A stretch of 64,000 nucleotides of DNA from Escherichia phage vB_EcoM_SP1: the sequence record MT682709.1. One strand, given 5' to 3'. Shown piece after piece: positions 11,099 to 32,842 of this stretch (position 1 is its first letter; each line of letters starts with the position of its first letter). Position numbers and translations under genes: made by a program. Under the pieces are notes generated by a model. That model was not told the DNA's origin and made no database searches. It saw only the letters and a program-made list of their open reading frames with translations.

Positions 11099-11755
11099 TT
11101 ATTTAGCCCTTCCTAATATTCTGGCCGCCTGAGAACATATTGATTCAAGGCGGTCATTACTTATATGATCATTTCTATACCAGTACATGGTTATTGTTCC
11201 AGCATAGATATTATCCAAATTGAAATATGGACAACTGTACATGTAGTTTATTTCGGGAGTAGGCTTTTTAGTTGGTAAAAAAGCAAATTTTGAATCGGAA
11301 TAATAATGACGTCCATTTAAATGAACTGTATATTCATCCATAGTTTTATCAACAGGATATCCTCCAAGTGATTTTTCGCTTATTGTTGAAGGTAATTTTC
11401 CTTCATATGCTATAATATCAACAAAATAGTTTAAGTTTTTAGGGCGGAAAGAATACACCGCACTAAAGTCTGCCTCAGATGATATGTGAACTATCTGGAG
11501 TTGTTCCAGGGCGACAGATTCAAAGCGTGCATTTCTTTCCTTTTCAATAATTTCACTGTATGTTTCATACTTTGATTGCTTATAGTACTCAAAGAAACTA
11601 TCTCCCCTATACCAAACAATCGCCATTATAAACAAAAGAATTACGACAGCTACTCGGGAAGCAAGAACCTTCCCGGTAGCGTTATCTTTGAACAAGCGAT
11701 CTAGAACACCCAACAGAATATCAGAGGGCGAAAATGATATTCTAGGTGCTGCCAT
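11099..11755 (-). CDS. t: holin T
   Basis: 218 aa as T4 holin; single N-terminal TM followed by large periplasmic domain; adjacent to gene 38. Confidence 0.9.
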   Translation of the reverse strand: MAAPRISFSPSDILLGVLDRLFKDNATGKVLASRVAVVILLFIMAIVWYRGDSFFEYYKQSKYETYSEIIEKERNARFESVALEQLQIVHISSEADFSAVYSFRPKNLNYFVDIIAYEGKLPSTISEKSLGGYPVDKTMDEYTVHLNGRHYYSDSKFAFLPTKKPTPEINYMYSCPYFNLDNIYAGTITMYWYRNDHISNDRLESICSQAARILGRAK

Positions 11756-11785: not shown

Positions 11786-12565
11786 TTATACTCTTGGACC
11801 ATATATTGCTCCAACGTTTTGCCATGTCGGTGTAGACCCTATGACGGCATAACCAGCAGCACCACCGTTATATTCTGTACCGTTCCCATGAATATTACAT
11901 CTACCTCCTGCTGAGCCAACTTCACCGCCATTCCCGCCTGTATATACCCAAAGAGACCCCTCACCGACAGATCCTGCACCCGGAGCGGAAATGGTGCCAG
12001 CGGTTGCACCAGCACCCATATGAGAGGAAGACCCGCCAGCACCGAATGGGCGACCACCACCACCACCAAATGATAGTCTACCGTAGTTACCGCCGCCGCC
12101 ACCGCCACCGCCGCCTGCAATAGCTCCACCATTATTAATTCTTAGTCTCCCACCAATATCGTTTTGAATACAATGACCTCCAGCTGAGCCAGGACTATTG
12201 CTACCGCCATTCCCGCCACGACCATACATCGTTACGCCGTGTATATTCAGTTGAACATATTCATTCGGTGTATCTCCGTACATGAAGAATAAAGGAACAT
12301 CTTTAGAATATGATACTAAATCTCCAGTGATATTAAACACTATAGGTGTACTACCTGCCTCAAAACATCTATCTCGGAACCATTGACCATTGAAGTTATG
12401 GTCTGCTCCAAGCGTGTGAATTATTTCTCTTGAGCGACCTGCAAATTGACTCATCCAGCAAGGAACACCCAATCTTAATTGACCAGCTGCTTGACTCATC
12501 CAGCGCTGACCCGTTTCATTTACAGCTGAACTTCCAATCCAGCCAGGAACTCCAACTACTGCCAT
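11786..12565 (-). CDS. 38: distal tail fibre adhesin gp38, T2-type with glycine-rich motifs
   Basis: 259 aa with poly-Gly runs ([17 protein letters not shown]) typical of T2-type gp38 adhesins, unlike the 183-aa T4 gp38 chaperone. Confidence 0.8.
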
Positions 12566-12601
12566 AATTTATACTCCAAAGGGGGCATTTCCCCCTTGTT
12601 G

Positions 12602-15600
12602 TTAGAATTTAAAATATTTACTAATTCTGCGAGCAATTTTAGTAAAGAGAGGCGTTTTCAATTCTTTAATTTCTTCACTCATTTCCTGAATAGCCTTAAT
12701 TAAAAGAGCATTCACCGCAGAGTTAGAAATTGTTAAAATCTCTTCTGGGTTATCAAGAGATCCGACATTAGAAGTGCTAACAGCTTCCGGTAAAATTTCT
12801 TGTAAATCCTGCGCGATAATACCAATCTCATGTGCGATGACTTCTCGGTCAGAAAGAGACTTAACTTTATCGTAGGTTTTAACTTTTAGTTTATTTACCT
12901 TATCTACCGCATTTTCTTCGTAGTCTTCAACGTTAATTTTCAGACGACGGTCGGAACGAATATAAACATCGTTACAGTAAACCGACGCACTAGATGTGAA
13001 ATCACCATTTGCAGCCCATGAATACCAGCCGCCTTTGTTCATATGCATCATTACGGTAGCATTACCACCGCCAGCATGAACACCCATTGCCGCAAGATAA
13101 TCAGCACCCCAATGAACTGCTTTCCAAATTGAATATGCTTGGGTTTGTGAATTCTGACAATCTAAGAGAATACCAGCAGGACGGTTGCGCCAGTCATCCC
13201 AAGCACCACCAAAAACATCACCACGGATAAGAGCGTATTCACTATTATAAGGAACTTGCTCTCCCGCTTTAATCATTGCACCCTGGAAGTGATGACTAAA
13301 TGAACCCCCATGATTATTGCGAATATGTAAAATACCCTCATCTGTAGCCCAGATAACAGCCTTTTCTGCATCGCTATCATCTTTAAACCAGATGTGGCGA
13401 GCACCAGTTGAGTTTTTGATGGTTATTCCGCTAGGTCCATGCACGGTCAAAGAACCAGCAACATCAAACATCAAACTGTTATCTGTCCTGCGTTCAGCAT
13501 AGAAGTGATAACCTTTTGAATCGCCGACTTCCAATACTGCCGCGCGACCAACTTCTGAATTTCCCCAATTGTTGATAGAGAATCGTTCAGAGCTATTATT
13601 CATCTGATTTAGGTATAATGTACCATCAGTGAATGTTTCGCCAAAGAAACGAGTTTTAATTGCACCTGTCGCTAAAGTACGTTCAGTGGAAAAATGGGCG
13701 CCTTGACTATCTTCTAACTGGATGATGTTATCACGAGCGTTATTGCTATCACCCCAATGGTTAAATTTAAAATAATCTCGTGATCCTAAACGTCCGGCGT
13801 CAAAAGTCATCAAGCCTTTCATGTTAATATCACCGCCGACCAGAACGTTATCCGGGAAGTTAACTGTACCATCAGCATTAAATCTTGATGTATGGCCCTG
13901 TGTTCCATCTTCTTTGATATGGTGTATCACGAATGTACCTGAATTAATTTCAGTACCTAAAGACCAAACTGCTTTACCTTGAAGGTATTTTTGCTTAACA
14001 ATCGGATAATATTTGCTTATAGCAGCATCATCATCGATTTCCTGGAAAATAGGAGCCGCTTGAACATATTGAATATCATAACCACCAGCGCCAGCGCCAT
14101 GACCAGTAAATTTAATATAGCCGTTTGCTGCGAACGTATTGTAACTTGATTGTAAATCTGGAATAGTAACTTTACCAGTATCTAAAGCCATACTAAACGG
14201 GCGAAGTGGACCGATATCGCCATGTTTACCTTCACCGTAAGCAGTTGGAATAATATGAAGACTGCCTTCTGAACGTCTAAAAATAGCTCCATAATCTGCG
14301 TTCCAAATGCGAAGACCATTTACAGCATTTGTCGCGATTTCACCGGCTGCGCTGATTGTACCGTCAAATGTAGCATTTTTTACTACTGTAAAGTTTTCAT
14401 TAACAATCTGGGTGCCATTTATAACCGATTCGATTTTACCCGCAGTTGTTCGTTGAATATAATGCATCCATCCAATATCATCAGAAATTTCCATGACATT
14501 TTTACGGGTGCCTTCACTTGGATTAGTAAAAGTATTTCCCCAAACAGCTATATACATGTTATCAACGGAGCTTTGACCCATGGTATAGCCTTTAAACATT
14601 AAAGTTGAATTATTATTTCTACCATCAATATTAACCGAACCACCAATAACGTCAATATTGCCTGGAGTAACTAACAAACCGCCATGAGTATTAATGTTTG
14701 TGGTACCCTTACCGCGGAAATAGTGATGATAGTTACCGCCTTGATAATATCCTAAAAGAGTTTGACCGTCACCATACGCGTTATTATCATGGTAAGTAAC
14801 AACAGTGGCTAATGCATAGTTTTCTGTCGGCGGCGTTGTCATAAGAATCCCGTCCGGAGAATAACCCATAACCATTTTTCTAAGGCTTTGTGTTTCCGCA
14901 GGGCCGTAGATGAAAGTTCTTGTTCCATTGTTTACTGTATGAAAATATCCGTCCTGATGCCATTTAAATCCGGTGTCATTATCACCAAGAGCAATTGAGG
15001 CCGTTCCTAATTCAGAATATCCTTTGGGGCCGCCTGGAAGACCTACAGAAATAGAATGACCCGCTTTCAATCCACCAGCCCAGTTAAACGACCAAAGATA
15101 AGTGTCTAAGCCATCTCCGGAATACCAGGTTATTCCGTCATTAACATTAACTTCGTGGAAAATACCTGCTCCTACAGCATTTCGCATAACACGGAGGTGG
15201 TTAATAGCCGTTTCGCCTTCTGCCATTGGAGTGTTATTTGATAATGAATAGATATCATAATCGCCCGTCTTCTTCCCATTTGTAATAACTTTATCGGTCA
15301 AAATCTGAGGAGACGAAATAGATTTCCATGCTGACACTTCAGGTGAAGTAAATAGGCCACTGCCTGAAAATGCATAGGTGCTTTCATCACCAGCGGCGTA
15401 GTCTTGAACGCGGATATTAACTACTTGCGTAGTTAATCCATCATTAGCCGGGGCATAAATGATTCCGCGTTCGCGGCTATTGCCATCGAAAAAACGAACA
15501 TGTGATGTACCTGAACTTTTTGTAATAATTTCTCCGCCTTCGGTCATAATCTGCCCGGCGGCAATAATATCGCGAGTTACTCGAGCAATACCAGTTAAAT

Positions 15601-15859
15601 TAAAATTACCTGTCTGAGTGAAGGTGCCATTTAAAGTATAATCACCAGTTTGATTATAGTTTCCTATATGAATAACATTCCCGTCAATGCTACCGCCTTT
15701 AGCAAAACCCAGATCAATGATATTTCCTTGGTCGTCTTTAGTAAAAAGTACGCGGTCTTTTAAGTTTATAGCCAATTCACCTTCGGCTAATACTGAAGCG
15801 GCAGGACGTGCTCCTGCAGTTTTGCTTCTTTTAAATTGTATTTGTTTTAAAGTAGCCAT
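12602..15859 (-). CDS. 37: long tail fibre distal subunit gp37 with C-terminal intramolecular chaperone domain
   Basis: 1085 aa; N-terminus MATLKQIQFKRSK as T4 gp37; C-terminal ~116 aa begins SDRRLKINV, resembling endosialidase-type self-cleaving chaperone domains. Confidence 0.9.
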   Translation of the reverse strand: MATLKQIQFKRSKTAGARPAASVLAEGELAINLKDRVLFTKDDQGNIIDLGFAKGGSIDGNVIHIGNYNQTGDYTLNGTFTQTGNFNLTGIARVTRDIIAAGQIMTEGGEIITKSSGTSHVRFFDGNSRERGIIYAPANDGLTTQVVNIRVQDYAAGDESTYAFSGSGLFTSPEVSAWKSISSPQILTDKVITNGKKTGDYDIYSLSNNTPMAEGETAINHLRVMRNAVGAGIFHEVNVNDGITWYSGDGLDTYLWSFNWAGGLKAGHSISVGLPGGPKGYSELGTASIALGDNDTGFKWHQDGYFHTVNNGTRTFIYGPAETQSLRKMVMGYSPDGILMTTPPTENYALATVVTYHDNNAYGDGQTLLGYYQGGNYHHYFRGKGTTNINTHGGLLVTPGNIDVIGGSVNIDGRNNNSTLMFKGYTMGQSSVDNMYIAVWGNTFTNPSEGTRKNVMEISDDIGWMHYIQRTTAGKIESVINGTQIVNENFTVVKNATFDGTISAAGEIATNAVNGLRIWNADYGAIFRRSEGSLHIIPTAYGEGKHGDIGPLRPFSMALDTGKVTIPDLQSSYNTFAANGYIKFTGHGAGAGGYDIQYVQAAPIFQEIDDDAAISKYYPIVKQKYLQGKAVWSLGTEINSGTFVIHHIKEDGTQGHTSRFNADGTVNFPDNVLVGGDINMKGLMTFDAGRLGSRDYFKFNHWGDSNNARDNIIQLEDSQGAHFSTERTLATGAIKTRFFGETFTDGTLYLNQMNNSSERFSINNWGNSEVGRAAVLEVGDSKGYHFYAERRTDNSLMFDVAGSLTVHGPSGITIKNSTGARHIWFKDDSDAEKAVIWATDEGILHIRNNHGGSFSHHFQGAMIKAGEQVPYNSEYALIRGDVFGGAWDDWRNRPAGILLDCQNSQTQAYSIWKAVHWGADYLAAMGVHAGGGNATVMMHMNKGGWYSWAANGDFTSSASVYCNDVYIRSDRRLKINVEDYEENAVDKVNKLKVKTYDKVKSLSDREVIAHEIGIIAQDLQEILPEAVSTSNVGSLDNPEEILTISNSAVNALLIKAIQEMSEEIKELKTPLFTKIARRISKYFKF

Positions 15860-15867
15860 AAGTCCTC

Positions 15868-16557
15868 TTAATAATAGCCGAAATCTTGAACAGAATCCTT
15901 AATAACAATTTGATCAAATCGTGGAACATGCGAGGGTTGAGATGCAGGATTCTGCGAAAAAAGGTTTGGCGCAGTTAAATTTCCTGTCATAGTATCTCCA
16001 GAGCGTAATACCCTAGAGTTTGCGTTTGCTGTAACAATATTTATTGCTCCATCGACATAATCTTTGCGAGTTAAGTGTGCTGGGCCGGTCGGTACTGAAG
16101 CATTAGAAATAACTTGTTGGCCAGAAACAATATTGCCAACTGTTTCAACTTTACCACTCCTGGCATTAAACCAGATTGTGCGTCCCTGGATCCCATCACT
16201 TGTGCATGTGTTCCAAATACCAATGCCGTACCATGAACGTAAATCCATGTTAGCTTTTTCTCTGGAAGCTCCATCTCCATTGCCAGAATATAACCCATTC
16301 AGGTCTGAACCGCCAGAAAACGTTGCAGAAATCCTAACGCCTTCTTTAAATTCTACTTCTTTTTGGAAACCTTGAGACTTTGTGCCACCATTAGCTTTAG
16401 AAACGAAATCGTTATCAGTTGCCTGTGGTTTATTGTATTCTGAATATATTTTAAATGATTTATAGAGTACATCGTCACCGGCTGGATTCAATGGAAAATT
16501 TCCTTGATGCCAAATGACAGAGCCTCCAGTTGTTGAACCTACTTTTAAATCAGCCAT
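15868..16557 (-). CDS. 36: long tail fibre distal connector gp36
   Basis: 229 aa; synteny between 35 and 37. Confidence 0.85.
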   Translation of the reverse strand: MADLKVGSTTGGSVIWHQGNFPLNPAGDDVLYKSFKIYSEYNKPQATDNDFVSKANGGTKSQGFQKEVEFKEGVRISATFSGGSDLNGLYSGNGDGASREKANMDLRSWYGIGIWNTCTSDGIQGRTIWFNARSGKVETVGNIVSGQQVISNASVPTGPAHLTRKDYVDGAINIVTANANSRVLRSGDTMTGNLTAPNLFSQNPASQPSHVPRFDQIVIKDSVQDFGYY

Positions 16558-16620: not shown

Positions 16621-17739
16621 TTAAACTTCTCTAAATTCTTGCCCAAACACTTTACCAGTTTTAGACGATGCTTGCGTAGAAAGTACCATTATATCCGGAG
16701 GTGAAGCAGATTCACAGACATAATTAACTCGAATACCATTGACGCCAAATTCAGCAGGTTTTGAAATTCCGCCATTTCTTGATACTTCAGAAAAGCTTAA
16801 ATTTCTCATGCCACCTTGACCTGCTTGGGCAGTTCTTTGTGCATATATCGTAAATCCCGCTGCATTTTCTGGAATAACTACATAATCTTCCTTTAATTCC
16901 CATGACCCAGCTTGTCCGGTAAACTCAGCATATGTTGAAGAAATATATCCATTCGATTCATCATAAAAACGGATAGATATATTTGTAGTTCCAAGCGCAA
17001 GTAAATCGGCATCAGCATATAACTGTGCTTTAAGATAAAGAACATCACCAGGAATTAAATTATAATCAGATAGTTTACTTATAGCAGCTGAAGTTGGTAA
17101 TCGCGCAATTTCGTTATTAGTTCCACCAACTGCTGACATAAATTGCTCGACACTTTCATATGTTCTTTTAGGAAATCCTGTAGCTCCGACGTCTTCTAAA
17201 CTATCAAATACAACATCTAAAATAGTTTGATAGTCATCTGTGCTTTTTCTATTACTTAGTTTAACATGTTCCAATGCAATAGCTCTTTTAGAAGAAGTAT
17301 AAAAGGCAGCATATGATACGTCAAATCTTGACAATACAGAATCAGATGGAAAAGCAGACGTTCCTGCGGTTCTTATCCAAGATACTACCTCAGGAGGAAA
17401 ATTAACTTTTCCGTTAGTTAATATAGCAACAAGTCTATTATTCGTCAAAGAGTTCATGAAACCAACAAAAGCAGCTGATGTAGTATCATTTGAAGCCGAA
17501 AAAGCATATGACTTACTATCAACTAATGCTCCTGTAGAAGGGTCAAAAACTCTTAAATGAAGTCCTGCGCTAAATGTTTGACTTCCAACAGGATTATCCT
17601 GAAATTTAACGTATGGTCCTTCTGCAGTAGAAAGCGGGCAAGAACCCGCTATACTTATTTTATATCTTACTGAATTGCTTTCCGATAAAAATGGCGTTTG
17701 GACATATCCTTGTCCAAACTCTGCCATAAATTTTTCCAT
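16621..17739 (-). CDS. 35: long tail fibre hinge connector gp35
   Basis: 372 aa as T4 gp35; synteny. Confidence 0.85.
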   Translation of the reverse strand: MEKFMAEFGQGYVQTPFLSESNSVRYKISIAGSCPLSTAEGPYVKFQDNPVGSQTFSAGLHLRVFDPSTGALVDSKSYAFSASNDTTSAAFVGFMNSLTNNRLVAILTNGKVNFPPEVVSWIRTAGTSAFPSDSVLSRFDVSYAAFYTSSKRAIALEHVKLSNRKSTDDYQTILDVVFDSLEDVGATGFPKRTYESVEQFMSAVGGTNNEIARLPTSAAISKLSDYNLIPGDVLYLKAQLYADADLLALGTTNISIRFYDESNGYISSTYAEFTGQAGSWELKEDYVVIPENAAGFTIYAQRTAQAGQGGMRNLSFSEVSRNGGISKPAEFGVNGIRVNYVCESASPPDIMVLSTQASSKTGKVFGQEFREV

Positions 17740-17747
17740 AATACCTC

Positions 17748-20700
17748 TTATTCAACCCATTCAAATTTAACCGTTTTATTCACTGGGTCAGGAATAATGC
17801 GAACATTACCAATTCGTAAGAAATCACGAATAGTAAGATTCCCCATTATAGCATTATCAGATGGTAAAGCACCGATATCAGATGGCTGAGGAGGGTTACC
17901 TCCATCAAATACCTGAACAAAGCTTGACCAAGAATTTTTGGTTTTCTGCCATGTACGCGTCCAGCGAGTGGTGCGCGCTTCTGGGGTCGTTGGATAAGTA
18001 ATCCAATCTTGGTAAAGCGAATCGAGTGTGTTACCAAATTGAGTCAGCGTACCAGGAGATTTAACCTCTTCACCGCGTTCTAAGTATGGAAGCCCAGTCA
18101 CTTCATTAGTTTTTTCAACCATTTTAAAATAACCCGGGAACTGGTTATAAGTGGCTGAATCATTAATATCGATTGACCAGAATCCTACAGTATCAGATGT
18201 TGGCGCACGGGTATATAAATCAGAGGTTTTAGTACCCTGAGAACGAATTCTCGAGTTAACAGTTAAACCACCTGAAGTTATAGTAGCACCTTTGGCAATG
18301 ATTAAGCTTTCACCAATTGTAACCTGACCAGATTGATTATTAATTGATAATGGACGTAATCCATTAAACCCACCAGTCTGATCACCAGATGCAGTAAGCA
18401 TAAAATAGGTGTTAGCACCATCATTACGAATAAAGAATCCGTAATCACCATTTATTGCTCTAAAAGCATTCGACGATTTACTGATAAATTCGCCATTAGC
18501 AGTAACTGAACTACCGAATGTTGCAACGCCATTCGCATTCAATGTTCCTGAAGCATTCACATTTATCGGTGTTACTGTACCATTGATATTAAATGTTATA
18601 TTACCAGCTTTATTGCGCTGAGAATAAAAGTGACTAGACGTTTCATCACTAACTTCAAATACAGTAGAACGCGTTGTGTCTGATTCACCACTAAATTGAT
18701 TTCCCCACACTTTGACTGTCATCGTTTGAGCCGGGTTCGTTCCAGTTTGAGGTCCTTTCTCAAAAATCAGACGAGTTGCTGTTCCAGTATTAGAAATGGT
18801 TAGTGTACTATTTGCTGAAACTGATCCACCGAACGTAGCAGTACTAGATGATACAAGAGGGGCACTCAGATTCGTTTGTTGGGTTAAGGTTAGTGAACCA
18901 TTAACCGTTTGTGCAATATCCCTACGAATGAACTGAGATGAATCTAGACCATCCAGTAAATTACTATCTACAGCTTTTGCTTTTAACGGCAAATAATTTG
19001 CTAATACACGGTTTAATTCGTATGGCGATACTGCATAACTATTTTTCTCGTACAATTCTAATGACTGTGTTGAACCAACTGTATCATTACCAACGAATGT
19101 AATTGAACCAGATGAAGTTTTAACAAAACCTCTTACCAGAGTAGTAGCTGCCCAAGTAGGTTCACTCTGCACAATCCATTTTAAATTTTTTGGAGATACA
19201 GCAGTATTTGCTGACGTTCCAGTTACAGTTTCAGACTGAGTTGCAACTTTAATAACGCCTTCCTGCGCTTCAGTAGATTTAGTACCTAAAAGCTTTTTAG
19301 GAGTTATTAGAACATTATCTAATGTTCCTGCAGCAGCTTCAACTTGCGTAGCTACACGAAGTGTACCACGTTGTGTCTCATTTGCTTCAAGAATATTGAG
19401 GGTATAATGGTCCCAGAGAGTTCCTGATTCAACTAATCCAGATAGAGCAACAACAGAAGTACGATCAGTACTGTTAAATCTGGTTTTAATTTTTAATGGT
19501 GTAGAGATACGAGTATCGTCGACGCCTGCGTCGAATTCAACTTGCGTAGCAATTTCAGCTATACCACTTAAACTTTCAGTTGCTTTACGGTCATTTAAAG
19601 TTTTAGGAGTGACTGCACGAGTATAATCAGTTCCTGTATTAACTTCACTTTGCGTAGCAATTTCAATTAAACCAATTCTTGCATCAGTTGATGTCTTTTT
19701 ATGTAACGTTTCTGGCGTTACAACCGCATTTGCCCATCCTTCTTGGCTTTGTCCAGCAATTACTTCACTTTCAACTGCTAAAATTACTGCGCCTTGTTGG
19801 GTTGGAGTAGCTTTATACTGATCCAGAGCTTTAGGCGAAACAACTAAATTATTAGTGTTTTTATTATAAACGTTTGTACCATTTAATTCACGACTAGAAG
19901 CTGGAGTAGCTCCTGCAGTAGATACAAAGGTTACAATACCAGATAATGATTCAGAACCTTGACGAGCTTGAAGCTTTTTAGGAGTGACGATTGTAGTATC
20001 ATCAGTACCTGCGTTAGTTTCTTGCTGCGTCGCAATTTCAGCAACGCCTCTACGAGTTTCTGTGGCAGTTCTTTCATTCAGCTTTTTAGGAGTGACGATA
20101 ATATCATCAGCAAAAGAGAATGTAGTATCCTGGTTCACTTGGGCAGTAGTTGCTATTCTTGCGATACCTCTACGAGTTTCTGTAGCAGTACGGTTAGCTA
20201 ATGTTTCTGGAGTAATTGCTAATTCTTTTTGCGGAGAATTTTCTAAATCAGCATTTGCTTGAGCTTGTGTAGCTAAAGCTATTACGCCTAATCTTGCTCT
20301 AGTAGAATCATTTAAAGAATCAACTCTTTCAACTGTTGGAACGTTTTGTTGTACCACCCAGTATTTTCCATCAGAATCTTCTATATAAGCAAGCTGTAAA
20401 ACTGGAACATAATTAGTTTCGCCGTTAAAAACTAATTCTTGAACAGTCACCCATTCAGCTTCAGGTGGATATTCTGAACGTTTTGGGAATTGCAGCAATT
20501 GAACTGAAGAAGCAATTTTATCTTCACCAGCAGCTTTGATTTTAACTGTTTGGCCTTTTCTCATGTAATTCATGGAAATTTTAACAGTATCACCAATGGA
20601 AATATCAGTTGGAAGCTGAAGTTCAATTGTTTGGGTTGTTCCGTTATTTGCTCCAAATACCATAACTTCTTCATTTGGACGAATACTAGAATTAGTTGTT

Positions 20701-21617
20701 ATAATACGTAAACGTGCTTTACTATCCCCGTCAAACAATCTCCACAATTTTTCATTATCATCATACATCAAGAAACCATCAATCGATGTACGGCCTTCAA
20801 TGGAATGAGTTCCAACTTCTTGCACTGAAGTTGTTTCATCATATGTCGTGACAATTGTATGATAAAGTGGATTTAATTTGTCCAAATCGACGAAATTAAT
20901 AATATCGCCGTGATTAGCAAATCTCGGAAGTTTAATATTAATCGGCGCAGCGGAAGTAAATCTACGCACGATAAAATCGTTAGATTGCGCCTGATAAAGA
21001 CTTGCCGGTGTTACGACTACAGCTTCTCTGCTATAATCAGCAACATACATTTGCCACAGACGATTACTAAAAATTAAAACTATCTGCGATTTTGGATGAG
21101 TCATTAGTACTGATCGTACTTGCTGACCTCTAAAATTTACAATGCTTTGCACCGGAGCGGTAATTAAAACTTGGTTAACTCCAGGTTTTCCTCCAATGTC
21201 TTGGAGAACGATAGTATCTCCATCAATTGGGGAAGATGGTAAAGTAAATGTAATGTCATTACCAGCTGCAGTATCAACTGAAATTGATTCGCCTGACTTT
21301 AATTGATAAGGTCCTGATGAAACAGTTGTCCAATTAGCATCAGTACGTAATGCTCTCCAGCGTACACTATTAAAAGCTCCTGCTGGTTTTGGAATATCAT
21401 TTATAGCAGCCCAAAAGCGGTTATCATAAATGATTACAAAATCTTTTAAATATCCACGAGTTGGATCGTATTGTTGAACTGTGTTTTCTTGAATTAAGTA
21501 ATCAACGTTAACACCGTCAGTTCCTACGGTACGATCAGCTAAAGCTACGTTGATTATTTTATCGCCACCTGCGTCCAGACCGTCTTCTGCTCTGAACTTT
21601 CTTTTAATCTCGGCCAT
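17748..21617 (-). CDS. 34: long tail fibre proximal subunit gp34
   Basis: 1289 aa as T4 gp34; internal ~40-aa tail-fibre repeats (TPKKL..ATE..GV..IAT). Confidence 0.9.
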   Translation of the reverse strand: MAEIKRKFRAEDGLDAGGDKIINVALADRTVGTDGVNVDYLIQENTVQQYDPTRGYLKDFVIIYDNRFWAAINDIPKPAGAFNSVRWRALRTDANWTTVSSGPYQLKSGESISVDTAAGNDITFTLPSSPIDGDTIVLQDIGGKPGVNQVLITAPVQSIVNFRGQQVRSVLMTHPKSQIVLIFSNRLWQMYVADYSREAVVVTPASLYQAQSNDFIVRRFTSAAPINIKLPRFANHGDIINFVDLDKLNPLYHTIVTTYDETTSVQEVGTHSIEGRTSIDGFLMYDDNEKLWRLFDGDSKARLRIITTNSSIRPNEEVMVFGANNGTTQTIELQLPTDISIGDTVKISMNYMRKGQTVKIKAAGEDKIASSVQLLQFPKRSEYPPEAEWVTVQELVFNGETNYVPVLQLAYIEDSDGKYWVVQQNVPTVERVDSLNDSTRARLGVIALATQAQANADLENSPQKELAITPETLANRTATETRRGIARIATTAQVNQDTTFSFADDIIVTPKKLNERTATETRRGVAEIATQQETNAGTDDTTIVTPKKLQARQGSESLSGIVTFVSTAGATPASSRELNGTNVYNKNTNNLVVSPKALDQYKATPTQQGAVILAVESEVIAGQSQEGWANAVVTPETLHKKTSTDARIGLIEIATQSEVNTGTDYTRAVTPKTLNDRKATESLSGIAEIATQVEFDAGVDDTRISTPLKIKTRFNSTDRTSVVALSGLVESGTLWDHYTLNILEANETQRGTLRVATQVEAAAGTLDNVLITPKKLLGTKSTEAQEGVIKVATQSETVTGTSANTAVSPKNLKWIVQSEPTWAATTLVRGFVKTSSGSITFVGNDTVGSTQSLELYEKNSYAVSPYELNRVLANYLPLKAKAVDSNLLDGLDSSQFIRRDIAQTVNGSLTLTQQTNLSAPLVSSSTATFGGSVSANSTLTISNTGTATRLIFEKGPQTGTNPAQTMTVKVWGNQFSGESDTTRSTVFEVSDETSSHFYSQRNKAGNITFNINGTVTPINVNASGTLNANGVATFGSSVTANGEFISKSSNAFRAINGDYGFFIRNDGANTYFMLTASGDQTGGFNGLRPLSINNQSGQVTIGESLIIAKGATITSGGLTVNSRIRSQGTKTSDLYTRAPTSDTVGFWSIDINDSATYNQFPGYFKMVEKTNEVTGLPYLERGEEVKSPGTLTQFGNTLDSLYQDWITYPTTPEARTTRWTRTWQKTKNSWSSFVQVFDGGNPPQPSDIGALPSDNAIMGNLTIRDFLRIGNVRIIPDPVNKTVKFEWVE

Positions 21618-28398: not shown

Positions 28399-28678
28399 AT
28401 ATAAATCCGACTTTGATGTTAATATTCACCGTGGTACATTTTGGGGAAATTACGTCGGTAAAGATGCTGGCAGCCGGGAGGCTGCCATTGAATTATTCAA
28501 AAAAGATTTTATACGTCGAATTAAATCCGGAGAAATAACTAAAGCACATTTAGAGCCTTTACGTGGAATGAGGCTAGGATGCACATGTAAACCAAAGCCG
28601 TGTCATGGTGATATAATAGCTCATATAGTTAACCGATTGTTTAAAGACGATTTTCAAGTTGAGGACTTATGCAATTAA
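28352..28678 (+). CDS. hypothetical protein, 108 aa, with [12 protein letters not shown] motif
   Basis: Cys/His motif C-x-C-x-P-x-P-C-H-G-D; overlaps nrdA start by 10 nt. Confidence 0.5.
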
Positions 28679-30933
28679 TTAATGTTATCAAAAGTAGTGG
28701 TGTTTCTCAAAGCTTTGACCCGCAAAAAATTATTAAAGTTTTATCTTGGGCAGCTGAAGGAACATCTGTAGATCCTTATGAATTATATGAAAATATTAAA
28801 TCATATCTCCGTGATGGAATGACAACTGATGACATTCAGACTATTGTCATTAAGGCTGCTGCGAATTCTATTTCAGTTGAAGAGCCTGATTATCAATACG
28901 TAGCTGCACGCTGTTTAATGTTTGCTCTTCGTAAACATGTGTACGGACAATATGAACCACGTTCATTTATTGACCATATTTCTTACTGTGTAAATGAAGG
29001 TAAATACGACCCTGAACTGTTGTCAAAATATTCAGCAGAAGAAATTACATTTTTAGAATCAAAAATTAAGCACGAACGGGATATGGAATTTACTTATTCC
29101 GGGGCGATGCAATTAAAAGAAAAATATCTCGTTAAAGATAAAACCACTGGTCAAATTTATGAAACTCCACAGTTTGCATTTATGACTATTGGAATGGCAT
29201 TGCATCAAGATGAACCTGTTGACAGATTAAAACATGTTATTCGTTTTTATGAAGCAGTATCTACTCGACAGATTTCATTGCCAACTCCTATTATGGCTGG
29301 TTGTCGTACTCCAACTCGGCAGTTTAGTTCATGCGTTGTTATTGAGGCAGGTGATTCGCTGAAGTCTATCAACAAAGCTTCTGCTTCAATTGTTGAATAT
29401 ATCTCCAAACGAGCTGGAATCGGCATTAACGTTGGTATGATTCGTGCCGAAGGTTCTAAGATTGGCACAGGTGAAGTGCGTCATACTGGTGTTATTCCTT
29501 TTTGGAAACATTTTCAGACTGCTGTTAAATCATGTTCACAGGGCGGAATTCGTGGCGGCGCTGCTACTGCTTATTATCCTATTTGGCATTTGGAAGTTGA
29601 AAATCTTCTCGTTTTGAAAAATAACAAAGGCGTAGAAGAAAACCGTATCCGTCATATGGATTATGGTGTCCAGCTGAATGATTTGATGATGGAACGTTTT
29701 GGAAAGAACGACTACATTACTTTGTTCAGTCCGCATGAAATGGGTGGCGAGCTTTATTATTCTTATTTTAAAGACCAAGACCGTTTCCGTGAATTATACG
29801 AAGCAGCAGAAAAAGATCCTAATATTCGTAAAAAGCGTATTAAAGCTCGTGAATTATTTGAATTGCTCATGACTGAACGCTCAGGAACAGCAAGGATTTA
29901 TGTACAGTTCATTGATAATACGAATAACTATACTCCGTTTATTCGTGAAAAGGCACCTATTCGTCAGAGTAACTTGTGTTGTGAAATTGCTATTCCAACA
30001 AATGATGTGAATAGTCCTGATGCTGAAATTGGATTGTGCACGTTATCTGCATTTGTGTTGGATAACTTCGATTGGCAAGACCAAGATAAAATTAATGAAT
30101 TAGCAGAAGTTCAAGTTCGCGCTCTTGATAATCTTTTGGATTACCAAGGATATCCAGTTCCTGAAGCAGAAAAAGCTAAAAAGCGTCGAAATCTTGGTGT
30201 AGGTGTTACCAACTATGCAGCTTGGCTGGCAAGTAACTTTGCTTCTTATGAAGATGCTAACGATTTAACACATGAACTATTTGAGAGATTACAGTATGGA
30301 CTCATTAAAGCATCCATTAAGCTCGCCAAAGAAAAAGGACCTTGCGAATATTATTCAGACACTCGTTGGTCTCGAGGCGAATTACCTATCGACTGGTACA
30401 ATAAAAAGATTGACCAAATCGCAGCTCCAAAATACGTTTGTGACTGGTCGTCGCTGCGGGAAGACCTTAAGCTCTTTGGCATCCGTAATAGCACATTATC
30501 AGCACTTATGCCATGTGAGTCATCTTCCCAAGTTTCTAACAGTACAAACGGTATCGAGCCTCCACGTGGACCAGTCTCTGTTAAAGAATCAAAAGAGGGC
30601 TCCTTTAATCAAGTCGTGCCCAATATTGAGCATAACATAGACCTCTATGATTATACATGGAAATTAGCTAAGAAAGGTAATAAACCTTATCTTACGCAGG
30701 TAGCTATTATGCTGAAATGGGTTTGTCAATCAGCTTCAGCGAATACATACTATGACCCCCAAATCTTCCCTAAAGGCAAGGTTCCAATGTCAATAATGAT
30801 TGATGACATGCTATACGGATGGTATTATGGCATTAAAAATTTCTATTATCATAATACCCGTGATGGTTCTGGTACTGATGATTATGAAATAGAAACTCCT
30901 AAAGCCGACGATTGTGCAGCGTGTAAATTGTAA
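28669..30933 (+). CDS. nrdA: aerobic ribonucleotide reductase large subunit
   Basis: 754 aa as T4 NrdA; ATP-cone N-terminus, catalytic Cys motifs, C-terminal CAACKL. Confidence 0.95.
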   Translation: MQLINVIKSSGVSQSFDPQKIIKVLSWAAEGTSVDPYELYENIKSYLRDGMTTDDIQTIVIKAAANSISVEEPDYQYVAARCLMFALRKHVYGQYEPRSFIDHISYCVNEGKYDPELLSKYSAEEITFLESKIKHERDMEFTYSGAMQLKEKYLVKDKTTGQIYETPQFAFMTIGMALHQDEPVDRLKHVIRFYEAVSTRQISLPTPIMAGCRTPTRQFSSCVVIEAGDSLKSINKASASIVEYISKRAGIGINVGMIRAEGSKIGTGEVRHTGVIPFWKHFQTAVKSCSQGGIRGGAATAYYPIWHLEVENLLVLKNNKGVEENRIRHMDYGVQLNDLMMERFGKNDYITLFSPHEMGGELYYSYFKDQDRFRELYEAAEKDPNIRKKRIKARELFELLMTERSGTARIYVQFIDNTNNYTPFIREKAPIRQSNLCCEIAIPTNDVNSPDAEIGLCTLSAFVLDNFDWQDQDKINELAEVQVRALDNLLDYQGYPVPEAEKAKKRRNLGVGVTNYAAWLASNFASYEDANDLTHELFERLQYGLIKASIKLAKEKGPCEYYSDTRWSRGELPIDWYNKKIDQIAAPKYVCDWSSLREDLKLFGIRNSTLSALMPCESSSQVSNSTNGIEPPRGPVSVKESKEGSFNQVVPNIEHNIDLYDYTWKLAKKGNKPYLTQVAIMLKWVCQSASANTYYDPQIFPKGKVPMSIMIDDMLYGWYYGIKNFYYHNTRDGSGTDDYEIETPKADDCAACKL

Positions 30934-31664
30934 TGAATTATCAAAAAATCTATAATGACCTAATTTCCCGAGCTCAGGCTCGGGAACCTTTATCTGAATA
31001 TAAAGAGACACATCATATAGTCCCTAAATGCATGGGAGGTTCTGATGATAAAGAAAATTTAGTTGAATTAACAGCTAGAGAACATTTTATAGCGCATCTA
31101 TTACTATGTAAGATAAATGAAGGCCATTTTGGGCTTGCCTCTGCGTTAACGTTAATGGCAACAGATAAAGCTGGTAATAGAATTAATAACAGATTGTATA
31201 GCTTGCACAGAAAATTATTTGCTAAAGCTAATTCTGATTTCTTTAAGAAATATTGGAAAAATAATCCTCATCCTAGAGGAATGTTAGGCAAGCATCATAA
31301 AAACGAAACTAAACAACATGTATCAAACGTGAATAGGTATGCATGCCCATCTATCGAAATACATAAATTCTCATTAGATGGGGATTTCATAGAAACCTTT
31401 CACTCTATTGCGGCAGCGTCCAGGTCAGTTAATGGAAACGGGTCAAATATCAAATATTGTGCTGAGGGTAAATTTCAATATGCCTATGGATTTAGATGGT
31501 CATATCAACTTGATGCAAAGTTTGATAAAATACAACCAAGAGATTATAAAGGAATCCGCGGTAAGAAATGGATTAATAATGGAAGTGAATGCACGCTTAT
31601 AGGTAAAGATGATATTATACCGCCAGGTTGGAAACGCGGCAGAATTTTAAAGAGGAAAAATTAA
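30933..31664 (+). CDS. mobE: free-standing HNH homing endonuclease (mobE-like)
   Basis: 243 aa; HNH core HHIVPKCMGGSDDKENLVELTAREHFIAH; C-terminal YGFRWSY motif; inserted between nrdA and nrdB with TAATG overlaps at both ends. Confidence 0.75.
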   Translation: MNYQKIYNDLISRAQAREPLSEYKETHHIVPKCMGGSDDKENLVELTAREHFIAHLLLCKINEGHFGLASALTLMATDKAGNRINNRLYSLHRKLFAKANSDFFKKYWKNNPHPRGMLGKHHKNETKQHVSNVNRYACPSIEIHKFSLDGDFIETFHSIAAASRSVNGNGSNIKYCAEGKFQYAYGFRWSYQLDAKFDKIQPRDYKGIRGKKWINNGSECTLIGKDDIIPPGWKRGRILKRKN

Positions 31665-32842
31665 TGTCTACAGTTTTTAATACAAATCCAGTTGATGTTT
31701 TAAAAGAACCTATGTTTTTTGGTTCAGGTCTTGGTATTGCGCGTTATGATATTCAACGGCATCGAGTATTTGAAGAACTTACAGAAAAGTCCTTATCATT
31801 TTTCTGGCGCCCGGAAGAAGTAAACTTAATGATGGATGCTGCACAGTTTAATAAGCTTCCTCAGTATCAGCAAAATATTTTTACTAATAATCTGAAGTAT
31901 CAATCACTTTTGGATAGCATTCAGGGTCGTGCGCCGTCTGCTGTACTTATGTCATTAATTTCAGATCCGAGCCTTGATACATGGGTTGCTACGTGGACTT
32001 TTAGTGAAACTATTCACAGCCGTTCATATACACATATCATGCGAAATCTTTATACTGATCCATCGAAGGTATTTGATGAAATTGTATTAGATGAAGCTAT
32101 TATGAAACGTGCTGAATCCATTGGACGTTATTATGATGATGTTCTGATTAAAACCCGTGAATGGGAAAATGCTAAAGAATTTGTAGAACTAGCTAAAGAA
32201 TCTCCTGATGCCGACTTTCGTTTAAACCGAGCTATTAAACGAGAAGCCGAAGCTAAACGTGCTTTAATGAAGTCTCTTTACCTCTGCTTGCATGTAATCA
32301 ACGCATTAGAAGCTATTCGTTTTTATGTATCTTTCGCATGTACCTTTAACTTCCATAAAAACATGGAAATCATGGAAGGTAATGCCAAGATTATGAAGTT
32401 CATTGCACGTGATGAGCAGCTTCACCTTAAAGGCACCCAATATATTATTCGTCAGCTTCAATCCGGTACTGATGGTGATGAATGGGTTAAAATTGCTCAA
32501 GAGTGTGAACAAGAAGCAGTTGATATTTTCATGGAAGTTAACCGCCAAGAAAAAGATTGGGCAGTTCATTTATTTAAAGATGGCGATGTTCCTGGATTAA
32601 ATACAAATAGCATGTGGGGTTTTATTGATTACTTAACTGTATCTCGTATGAAACAGTGTGGTCTTCCATGCCCAATTACCGATGCTCCGGTTAAACATCC
32701 ATATCCTTGGATTCGTGAATATCTTAATTCTGATAATGTTCAATCCGCGCCACAAGAAGTAGAATTGTCATCTTACCTTGTTGCACAGATTGATAATGAT
32801 GTTGATGATAAAGTTATGATGAGTTTTAAAAAATACTTTTAA
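31664..32842 (+). CDS. nrdB: aerobic ribonucleotide reductase small subunit, intronless
   Basis: 392 aa continuous ORF from ATG 31664; di-iron ligands (E..H motifs) present; no intron. Confidence 0.9.
   Translation: MSTVFNTNPVDVLKEPMFFGSGLGIARYDIQRHRVFEELTEKSLSFFWRPEEVNLMMDAAQFNKLPQYQQNIFTNNLKYQSLLDSIQGRAPSAVLMSLISDPSLDTWVATWTFSETIHSRSYTHIMRNLYTDPSKVFDEIVLDEAIMKRAESIGRYYDDVLIKTREWENAKEFVELAKESPDADFRLNRAIKREAEAKRALMKSLYLCLHVINALEAIRFYVSFACTFNFHKNMEIMEGNAKIMKFIARDEQLHLKGTQYIIRQLQSGTDGDEWVKIAQECEQEAVDIFMEVNRQEKDWAVHLFKDGDVPGLNTNSMWGFIDYLTVSRMKQCGLPCPITDAPVKHPYPWIREYLNSDNVQSAPQEVELSSYLVAQIDNDVDDKVMMSFKKYF

Follow-up and report, generated by a model that had tools for sequence, protein, structure and literature searches.

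A Peptidase_S74-type chaperone domain at the C-terminus of the long tail fibre protein gp37 of a T2-like coliphage

Results

Organization of the tail fibre locus

The window, that is, the whole 64-kb stretch of DNA that was analysed, is part of the genome of a T-even (Tequatrovirus, T2-like) coliphage. About 4.3 kb around the tail fibre locus show 98% DNA identity to Escherichia phages LYE-01 and vB_EcoM_IME340, whose annotations at this locus are holin, tail fibre adhesin, long tail fibre distal subunit and hinge connector. The fibre genes all lie on the minus strand. According to the ORF listing, gp34 is encoded at 17748-21617, gp35 at 16621-17739 and gp36 at 15868-16557, the last one also being identified by Pfam. 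Gene 37 (12602-15859), coding for 1085 amino acids plus the stop codon, was assigned as the long tail fibre distal subunit precursor on the basis of the six-frame ORF listing, the annotation of LYE-01 and IME340 and the Pfam matches to Gp34_trimer and Peptidase_S74. Directly downstream, 36 nt past the gp37 stop, is gene 38 (11786-12565), encoding a tail fibre adhesin of 259 amino acids, and beyond it the holin gene t (11099-11755), found in the ORF listing and by Pfam.

The Gp34_trimer match (PF21446) lies inside gp37 at residues 450-556 (14192-14512, minus strand), with 29.3 bits against a cutoff of 27. This family is also matched by the gp37 proteins of T2 and T4, the score of the latter (25.5 bits) being below the cutoff, and it is a module that occurs in both half-fibres, the proximal one (gp34) and the distal one (gp37).

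The C-terminal domain of gp37

The end of gene 37 (12605-12985, minus strand) is translated as SVYCNDVYIR|SDRRLKINVEDYEEN...ISKYFKF, and the junction that concerns us here reads ...DVYIR-SDRRLKINVEDY... The earlier note had drawn attention to the motif S-DRRLKINVEDY at 12605-12955, regarding it as the start of a self-cleaving chaperone domain of the endosialidase type. The motif is indeed present, codon 12953-12955 specifies Ser969, and the domain runs from Ser969 to Phe1085, up to the gp37 stop codon and hence to the extreme C-terminus of the fibre protein; its length is 117 residues, one more than the approximate 116 first given. It is supported by Pfam, by the searches of PDB sequences, by the AlphaFold model and by Foldseek.

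The search with the Peptidase_S74 HMM, proposed in the earlier note along with the view that the lack of a hit would speak against the domain, returned a match. PF13884 (Peptidase_S74, 'Chaperone of endosialidase') aligns to gp37 residues 969-1027 with 53.5 bits, against a curated gathering cutoff of 22, and an E-value of 3e-14. The match spans positions 1-57 of the 58 in the profile, and Ser969 corresponds to profile position 1. In the model, a beta-hairpin and then a long helix at the C-terminus come after this S74 core (12779-12955, minus strand).

In a single-sequence search of PDB sequences, the gp37 C-terminus aligned to the gp37 chain of Salmonella phage S16 (6f45_A) across ...SSDRRIKKDIKAF... 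with an E-value of 2.7e-12. Using the 117 residues as query, tblastn retrieved 1631 phage records having homologous C-termini, which span T-even relatives, straboviruses of Aeromonas, Vibrio and Klebsiella, and T5-like and Tls-like siphoviruses, as well as hyaluronidase/PblB proteins of Streptococcus prophages and one Alteromonas podovirus. A diverse alignment (n=11) combined this gp37 with 10 further phage proteins from the tblastn search, each represented by its C-terminus. The profile of these 11 sequences recovered from the PDB sequences S16 gp37 (6f45_A, 1.3e-27), the MyRF ICA domain (7dc3, 1.5e-14), the tail fibre 8jov (3.8e-11) and the GA-1 neck-appendage chaperone (3gud, 2e-4), whose crystallised chain starts with SDERHK. 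The K1F endosialidase and T5 pb1 were reached neither by the single-sequence search nor by the 11-sequence profile in PDB sequences.

Three residues, Ser969, Asp970 and Lys974, are invariant in the 11 phylogenetically diverse phage homologues, and all the sequence upstream of the serine is unalignable, as would be expected if a portable C-terminal module had been joined to unrelated tips. In 54 database homologues the same three residues, and also Leu973, show no variation, and PF13884 is present in 54 of the 55 database protein matches; these are mostly short or partial proteins and not full-length gp37, so that they are uninformative on the diversity of the shaft. The serine and the lysine (12938-12940, minus strand) are arranged in SDRRLK as Ser and Lys+5, the same spacing as Ser1264 and Lys1269 of T5 (PMC4690869).

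Predicted fold

An AlphaFold2 monomer model of gp37 residues 869-1085 had a mean pLDDT of 77. The chaperone part scored mostly 85-96 over residues 969-1065, and the tip that precedes it was modelled with moderate confidence (pLDDT 43-82). In the model a small alpha/beta unit is combined with beta-hairpins and a C-terminal helix of 37 residues (H116-121, strands 126-176 and helix 178-214 in the positions of the monomer model). When this model was compared with the PDB by Foldseek, the only matches with E below 0.1 were 7dc3 (MyRF ICA), 3gw6 (K1F endosialidase chaperone) and 3gud (GA-1). The best of them was 7dc3 (E 1.7e-5, TMt 0.70). The K1F domain was reached by the fold search alone, with E about 1e-2 and a high rmsd, the poor superposition being explained by the stalk residues that 3gw6 also includes. 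Taken together, the HMM match, the invariant Ser, Asp and Lys and the fold match support the assignment of the gp37 C-terminus as an S74-type intramolecular chaperone, in agreement with the first description of this region.

The helix is followed by a basic amphipathic tail, KTPLFTKIARRISKYFKF, at gp37 residues 1068-1085 (12605-12658, minus strand), for which the model confidence was 64-73. This tail of about 18 amino acids is common to phage fPS-90, is missing in T2 and FriedrichMiescher, and is replaced by different tails in other lineages. One could imagine a further function of the released chaperone trimer that is due to this tail, for example in membrane association, release timing or interaction with gp57A; we consider this very doubtful compared with a neutral extension.

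The gp38 adhesin and the 37-38 intergenic region

The view of gp38 as an adhesin, also put forward in the earlier note, was borne out, since the protein is of the T2/S16 type by two Pfam families and by its docking residues. It matches PF05268 (GP38) with 232.9 bits and PF21721 (Gp38_N) with 73.8 bits, and the best PDB matches are 9v85, a GFP-gp38 fusion (5e-78), and 6f45_D, the S16 gp38 (3e-53). In an alignment of its first 60 residues with S16 gp38, Trp9, Trp22 and Trp37 coincide with the docking tryptophans of S16. In gp38 of the S16 type these tryptophans are prongs that enter three hydrophobic pockets, related by symmetry, at the tip of gp37 (PMC6851490, PMC7917993).

The region from the gp37 stop (12602-12604) to the gp38 start (12565) contains a stable hairpin, A-GGGGG-AAAUG-CCCCC-U (12580-12596, minus strand), followed by UU and the GGAG Shine-Dalgarno sequence of gene 38. 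Its 71-nt context has a folding energy of -18.1 kcal/mol (z -2.3). T2 carries at the same intergenic position a hairpin of other sequence, GAGGGC-UUCG-GCCCUC. This suggests that the hairpin is a conserved structural element, acting for instance in mRNA stabilisation, partial termination or translational control. A scan for sigma-70 promoters and terminators around the locus gave nothing above shuffled expectation.

Two further observations concern gene 38. A 97-aa ORF in another frame (11839-12132, minus strand), rich in Val and Ala, lies over the Gly-rich part of the gene with its GGN repeats, and is most likely a compositional artefact rather than a gene. In addition, a 303-aa NCBI entry named 'tail fiber domain-containing protein [Escherichia coli]' (P0007) begins with the first ~157 residues of a gp38 adhesin, as far as its poly-Gly run, and continues in the same frame with the tip and S74 chaperone of gp37 (…GGGGGQATVMMHMNKGG…DVYIRSDRRLK…). 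It corresponds to 12100-12565 of the window joined to about 12650-13070, both on the minus strand, so that the two parts stand in the opposite order to the genes of the phage. As the junction sits in Gly-codon repeats, this protein is probably a recombination or assembly artefact.

Discussion

Relation to the T2 and T4 fibres

In T4-type fibres the gp37 needle domain at the tip is the receptor binder and gp38 is a removable chaperone. T4 gp37, used as a negative control, matched Collar, Phage_fiber and Gp34_trimer and had no S74 domain, and T4 gp38, about 183 amino acids long in this type, had no GP38 match and is not an adhesin. The gp37 and gp38 encoded in the window show the opposite pattern, and these controls rule out an arrangement of the T4 type. 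The positive control, T2 gp37 (1341 aa), carries Peptidase_S74 at 1243-1300, and its NVYIR|SDIRLK aligns with DVYIR|SDRRLK of our protein through the junction; T2 gp38 is likewise an adhesin of the GP38 family. However, T2 gp37 and this gp37 share only 31% identity over the last 267 residues, and the T2 chaperone, with 99 amino acids, ends right after the coiled coil, whereas here the extra basic tail follows.

Already in 1986, Drexler, Riede and Henning reported processing of the T2 gp37 C-terminus (cited in PMC3157838). Many T-even phages, for example T2 and T6, lose the C-terminus of gp37 by cleavage before the fibre is capped by gp38, this being the predominant form and T4 the exception (PMC3157838); S16-like fibres, with a gp38 adhesin and a cleaved gp37, were likewise called predominant (PMC6851490). 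Thus, the difference from T4 that had been stressed at the outset holds as far as the T4 proteins are concerned, but it does not distinguish this phage, as the S16/T2 form is the common one (PMC3157838, PMC6851490).

Relation to other S74 systems

The gene order 37-38-t is shared with Salmonella phage S16 (6F45; Dunne et al. 2018 as summarised in PMC7917993 and PMC6851490), and both phages have an S74 domain at the gp37 C-terminus, the motif S-D-R-R-[LI]-K and a gp38 architecture with three docking tryptophans. They differ in the tip that precedes the cut (DLNVS in S16, DVYIR here) and slightly in the length of the chaperone (113 against 117 aa). The two gp38 proteins give a phmmer score of 184 bits, a divergence about as expected for a different receptor. 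The CASP13 paper describes the S16 tip and does not mention the chaperone. The chaperone of fPS-90 is 70% identical to that of our gp37 and ends in the same tail (...KTPFFTKIARKISNYFKF); the fPS motif has G where R stands here, and the upstream shaft is different.

The K1F endosialidase CIMCD (3GW6), the GA-1 CIMCD (3GUD) and the chaperone of the T5 pb1 L-shaped fibre (PMC4690869) belong to the same Pfam/MEROPS S74 family and share with this domain the Ser...Lys(+5) dyad and the location at the C-terminus of a trimeric fibre or spike with beta structure. In those systems the chaperone is released after folding and the mature tip is itself an enzyme or a receptor binder, whereas here the tip would be the socket for a separate monomeric adhesin. 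The best structural match, the MyRF ICA (7DC3), comes from a eukaryotic transcription factor in which cleavage frees the N-terminal DNA-binding trimer from the ER membrane, so that the domain alone is shared, not the system.

Cleavage of gp37 and capping by gp38

Several homologues with known or predicted cleavage sites bear on where gp37 would be cut. In S16 the last 113 residues of gp37 are autocleaved at DLNVS^SDRRIKK, exposing the gp38 docking surface, and for the fPS phages autocleavage at DVYIR^SDGRLKI, with gp38 docking as the next step, has been predicted (PMC7917993); this site differs in one residue from the junction DVYIR|SDRRLKI found here. In T5 pb1, for which the structure of an S1264A mutant was solved, the cleaved bond is Thr1263-Ser1264; this mutant is not cleaved, the serine has Lys1269 as its activator, and the mature fibre is left without the Ser, as also reported for K1F (PMC4690869). 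Self-cleavage after folding and the need for the domain in trimer folding have been shown in the homologues of T2 (PMC3157838), S16 (PMC7917993) and T5 (PMC4690869). Since the published sites of S16, T5 and fPS all precede the serine, the cut is predicted between Arg968 and Ser969 (12953-12958, minus strand), a position that also agrees with the invariance of the serine in the homologues, with its place as PF13884 position 1 and with the first residue of 3gud. The mature gp37 would then comprise residues 1-968 (12956-15859, minus strand) and end in the beta-strand DVYIR, the putative gp38 docking tip, and Ser969 would leave with the chaperone. In the earlier note cleavage was placed after the serine with a mature fibre of about 968 residues; the figure of 968 agrees with our prediction, and the bond has to be moved to the other side of the serine.

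It is highly probable, in our view, that gp37 is an S74 chaperone precursor that cleaves itself before Ser969 and whose tip is capped by a gp38 monomer. The protein would be made as a 1085-aa precursor with the Peptidase_S74-type chaperone in its last 117 residues. Three chaperone domains would associate via their helices and hairpins, nucleating the trimeric beta-helical tip and setting its register, and the serine would probably be placed beside the activating lysine only in a correctly folded trimer. The 'folding sensor' of T5 and K1F involves an Arg from the neighbouring chain and an Asp, both upstream. After folding, Ser969, as the predicted nucleophile activated by Lys974 as the general base of the Ser-Lys dyad, would attack the Arg968-Ser969 bond in each chain. 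The chaperone trimer would then dissociate and expose the flat DVYIR tip of the 968-aa gp37, onto which one gp38 monomer would dock, with Trp9, Trp22 and Trp37 from the three-helix domain at its N-terminus reaching into three pockets related by symmetry. In this scheme gp38 is expected to remain in the virion as the receptor-binding protein.

Other explanations must be weighed against self-cleavage before Ser969. The same domain could cut on the C-terminal side of the serine, leaving a 969-aa mature fibre that ends in Ser969, and a model for phi29 in which the Ser is retained is mentioned in PMC4690869. However, S16 and fPS, the closest characterised relatives, are cut or predicted to be cut before the serine (PMC7917993), T5 and K1F lack it in their mature fibres, and the 3gud chain begins with it, which makes a cut after Ser969 improbable. 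It could also be supposed that the S74 domain is a non-cleaving relic retained on the mature gp37, with gp38 binding elsewhere or only transiently. Such a relic would hardly be expected to keep the catalytic residues Ser969 and Lys974 and the neighbouring Asp970 intact and invariant, nor would the gp38 attachment domain and its tryptophans be conserved; moreover, gp38 docks on the cleavage-exposed surface in the S16 structure (PMC7917993), and T2, with the same junction, is processed (PMC3157838). We therefore regard a retained relic as very improbable.

That SDRRLK is a chance resemblance in an unrelated C-terminus has a negligible probability, given an HMM match over 57 of the 58 profile positions, the large number of phage records with homologous C-termini and fold matches confined to chaperone structures; the HMM, profile and fold results together rule it out. 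The reading of gp37 as a precursor that is cleaved before Ser969 and capped by gp38 is thus the one that we adopt.

Meaning of the assignment

The mechanism, the structures (3GW6, 3GUD, T5 pb1 and MyRF), the Ser-Lys dyad and the distribution of this domain have already been published, and a near-identical motif was discussed for the fPS phages in 2021 (PMC7917993). The feature was correctly recognised, and it is a known one, now identified in a further T2-like phage. Nevertheless, it has some practical consequences. For annotation, the product of gene 37 in the virion is predicted to have 968 and not 1085 amino acids, and the receptor-binding protein would be gp38 instead of gp37. For host-range engineering, gp38 swaps need a gp38 N-terminal domain matched to the type of gp37 tip, and for expression of the fibre the chaperone must stay in the construct.

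Other features of the window

Elsewhere in the window, neither a group I intron nor any other Rfam family at gathering score was found over the whole 64 kb, and ARAGORN detected no tRNA genes over the same stretch. A 243-aa ORF with a NUMOD1 domain (30933-31664, plus strand) lies between nrdA (28669-30933) and nrdB (about 31628-32842), starting at the nrdA stop and overlapping the listed nrdB start. NUMOD1 is typical of free-standing homing endonucleases.
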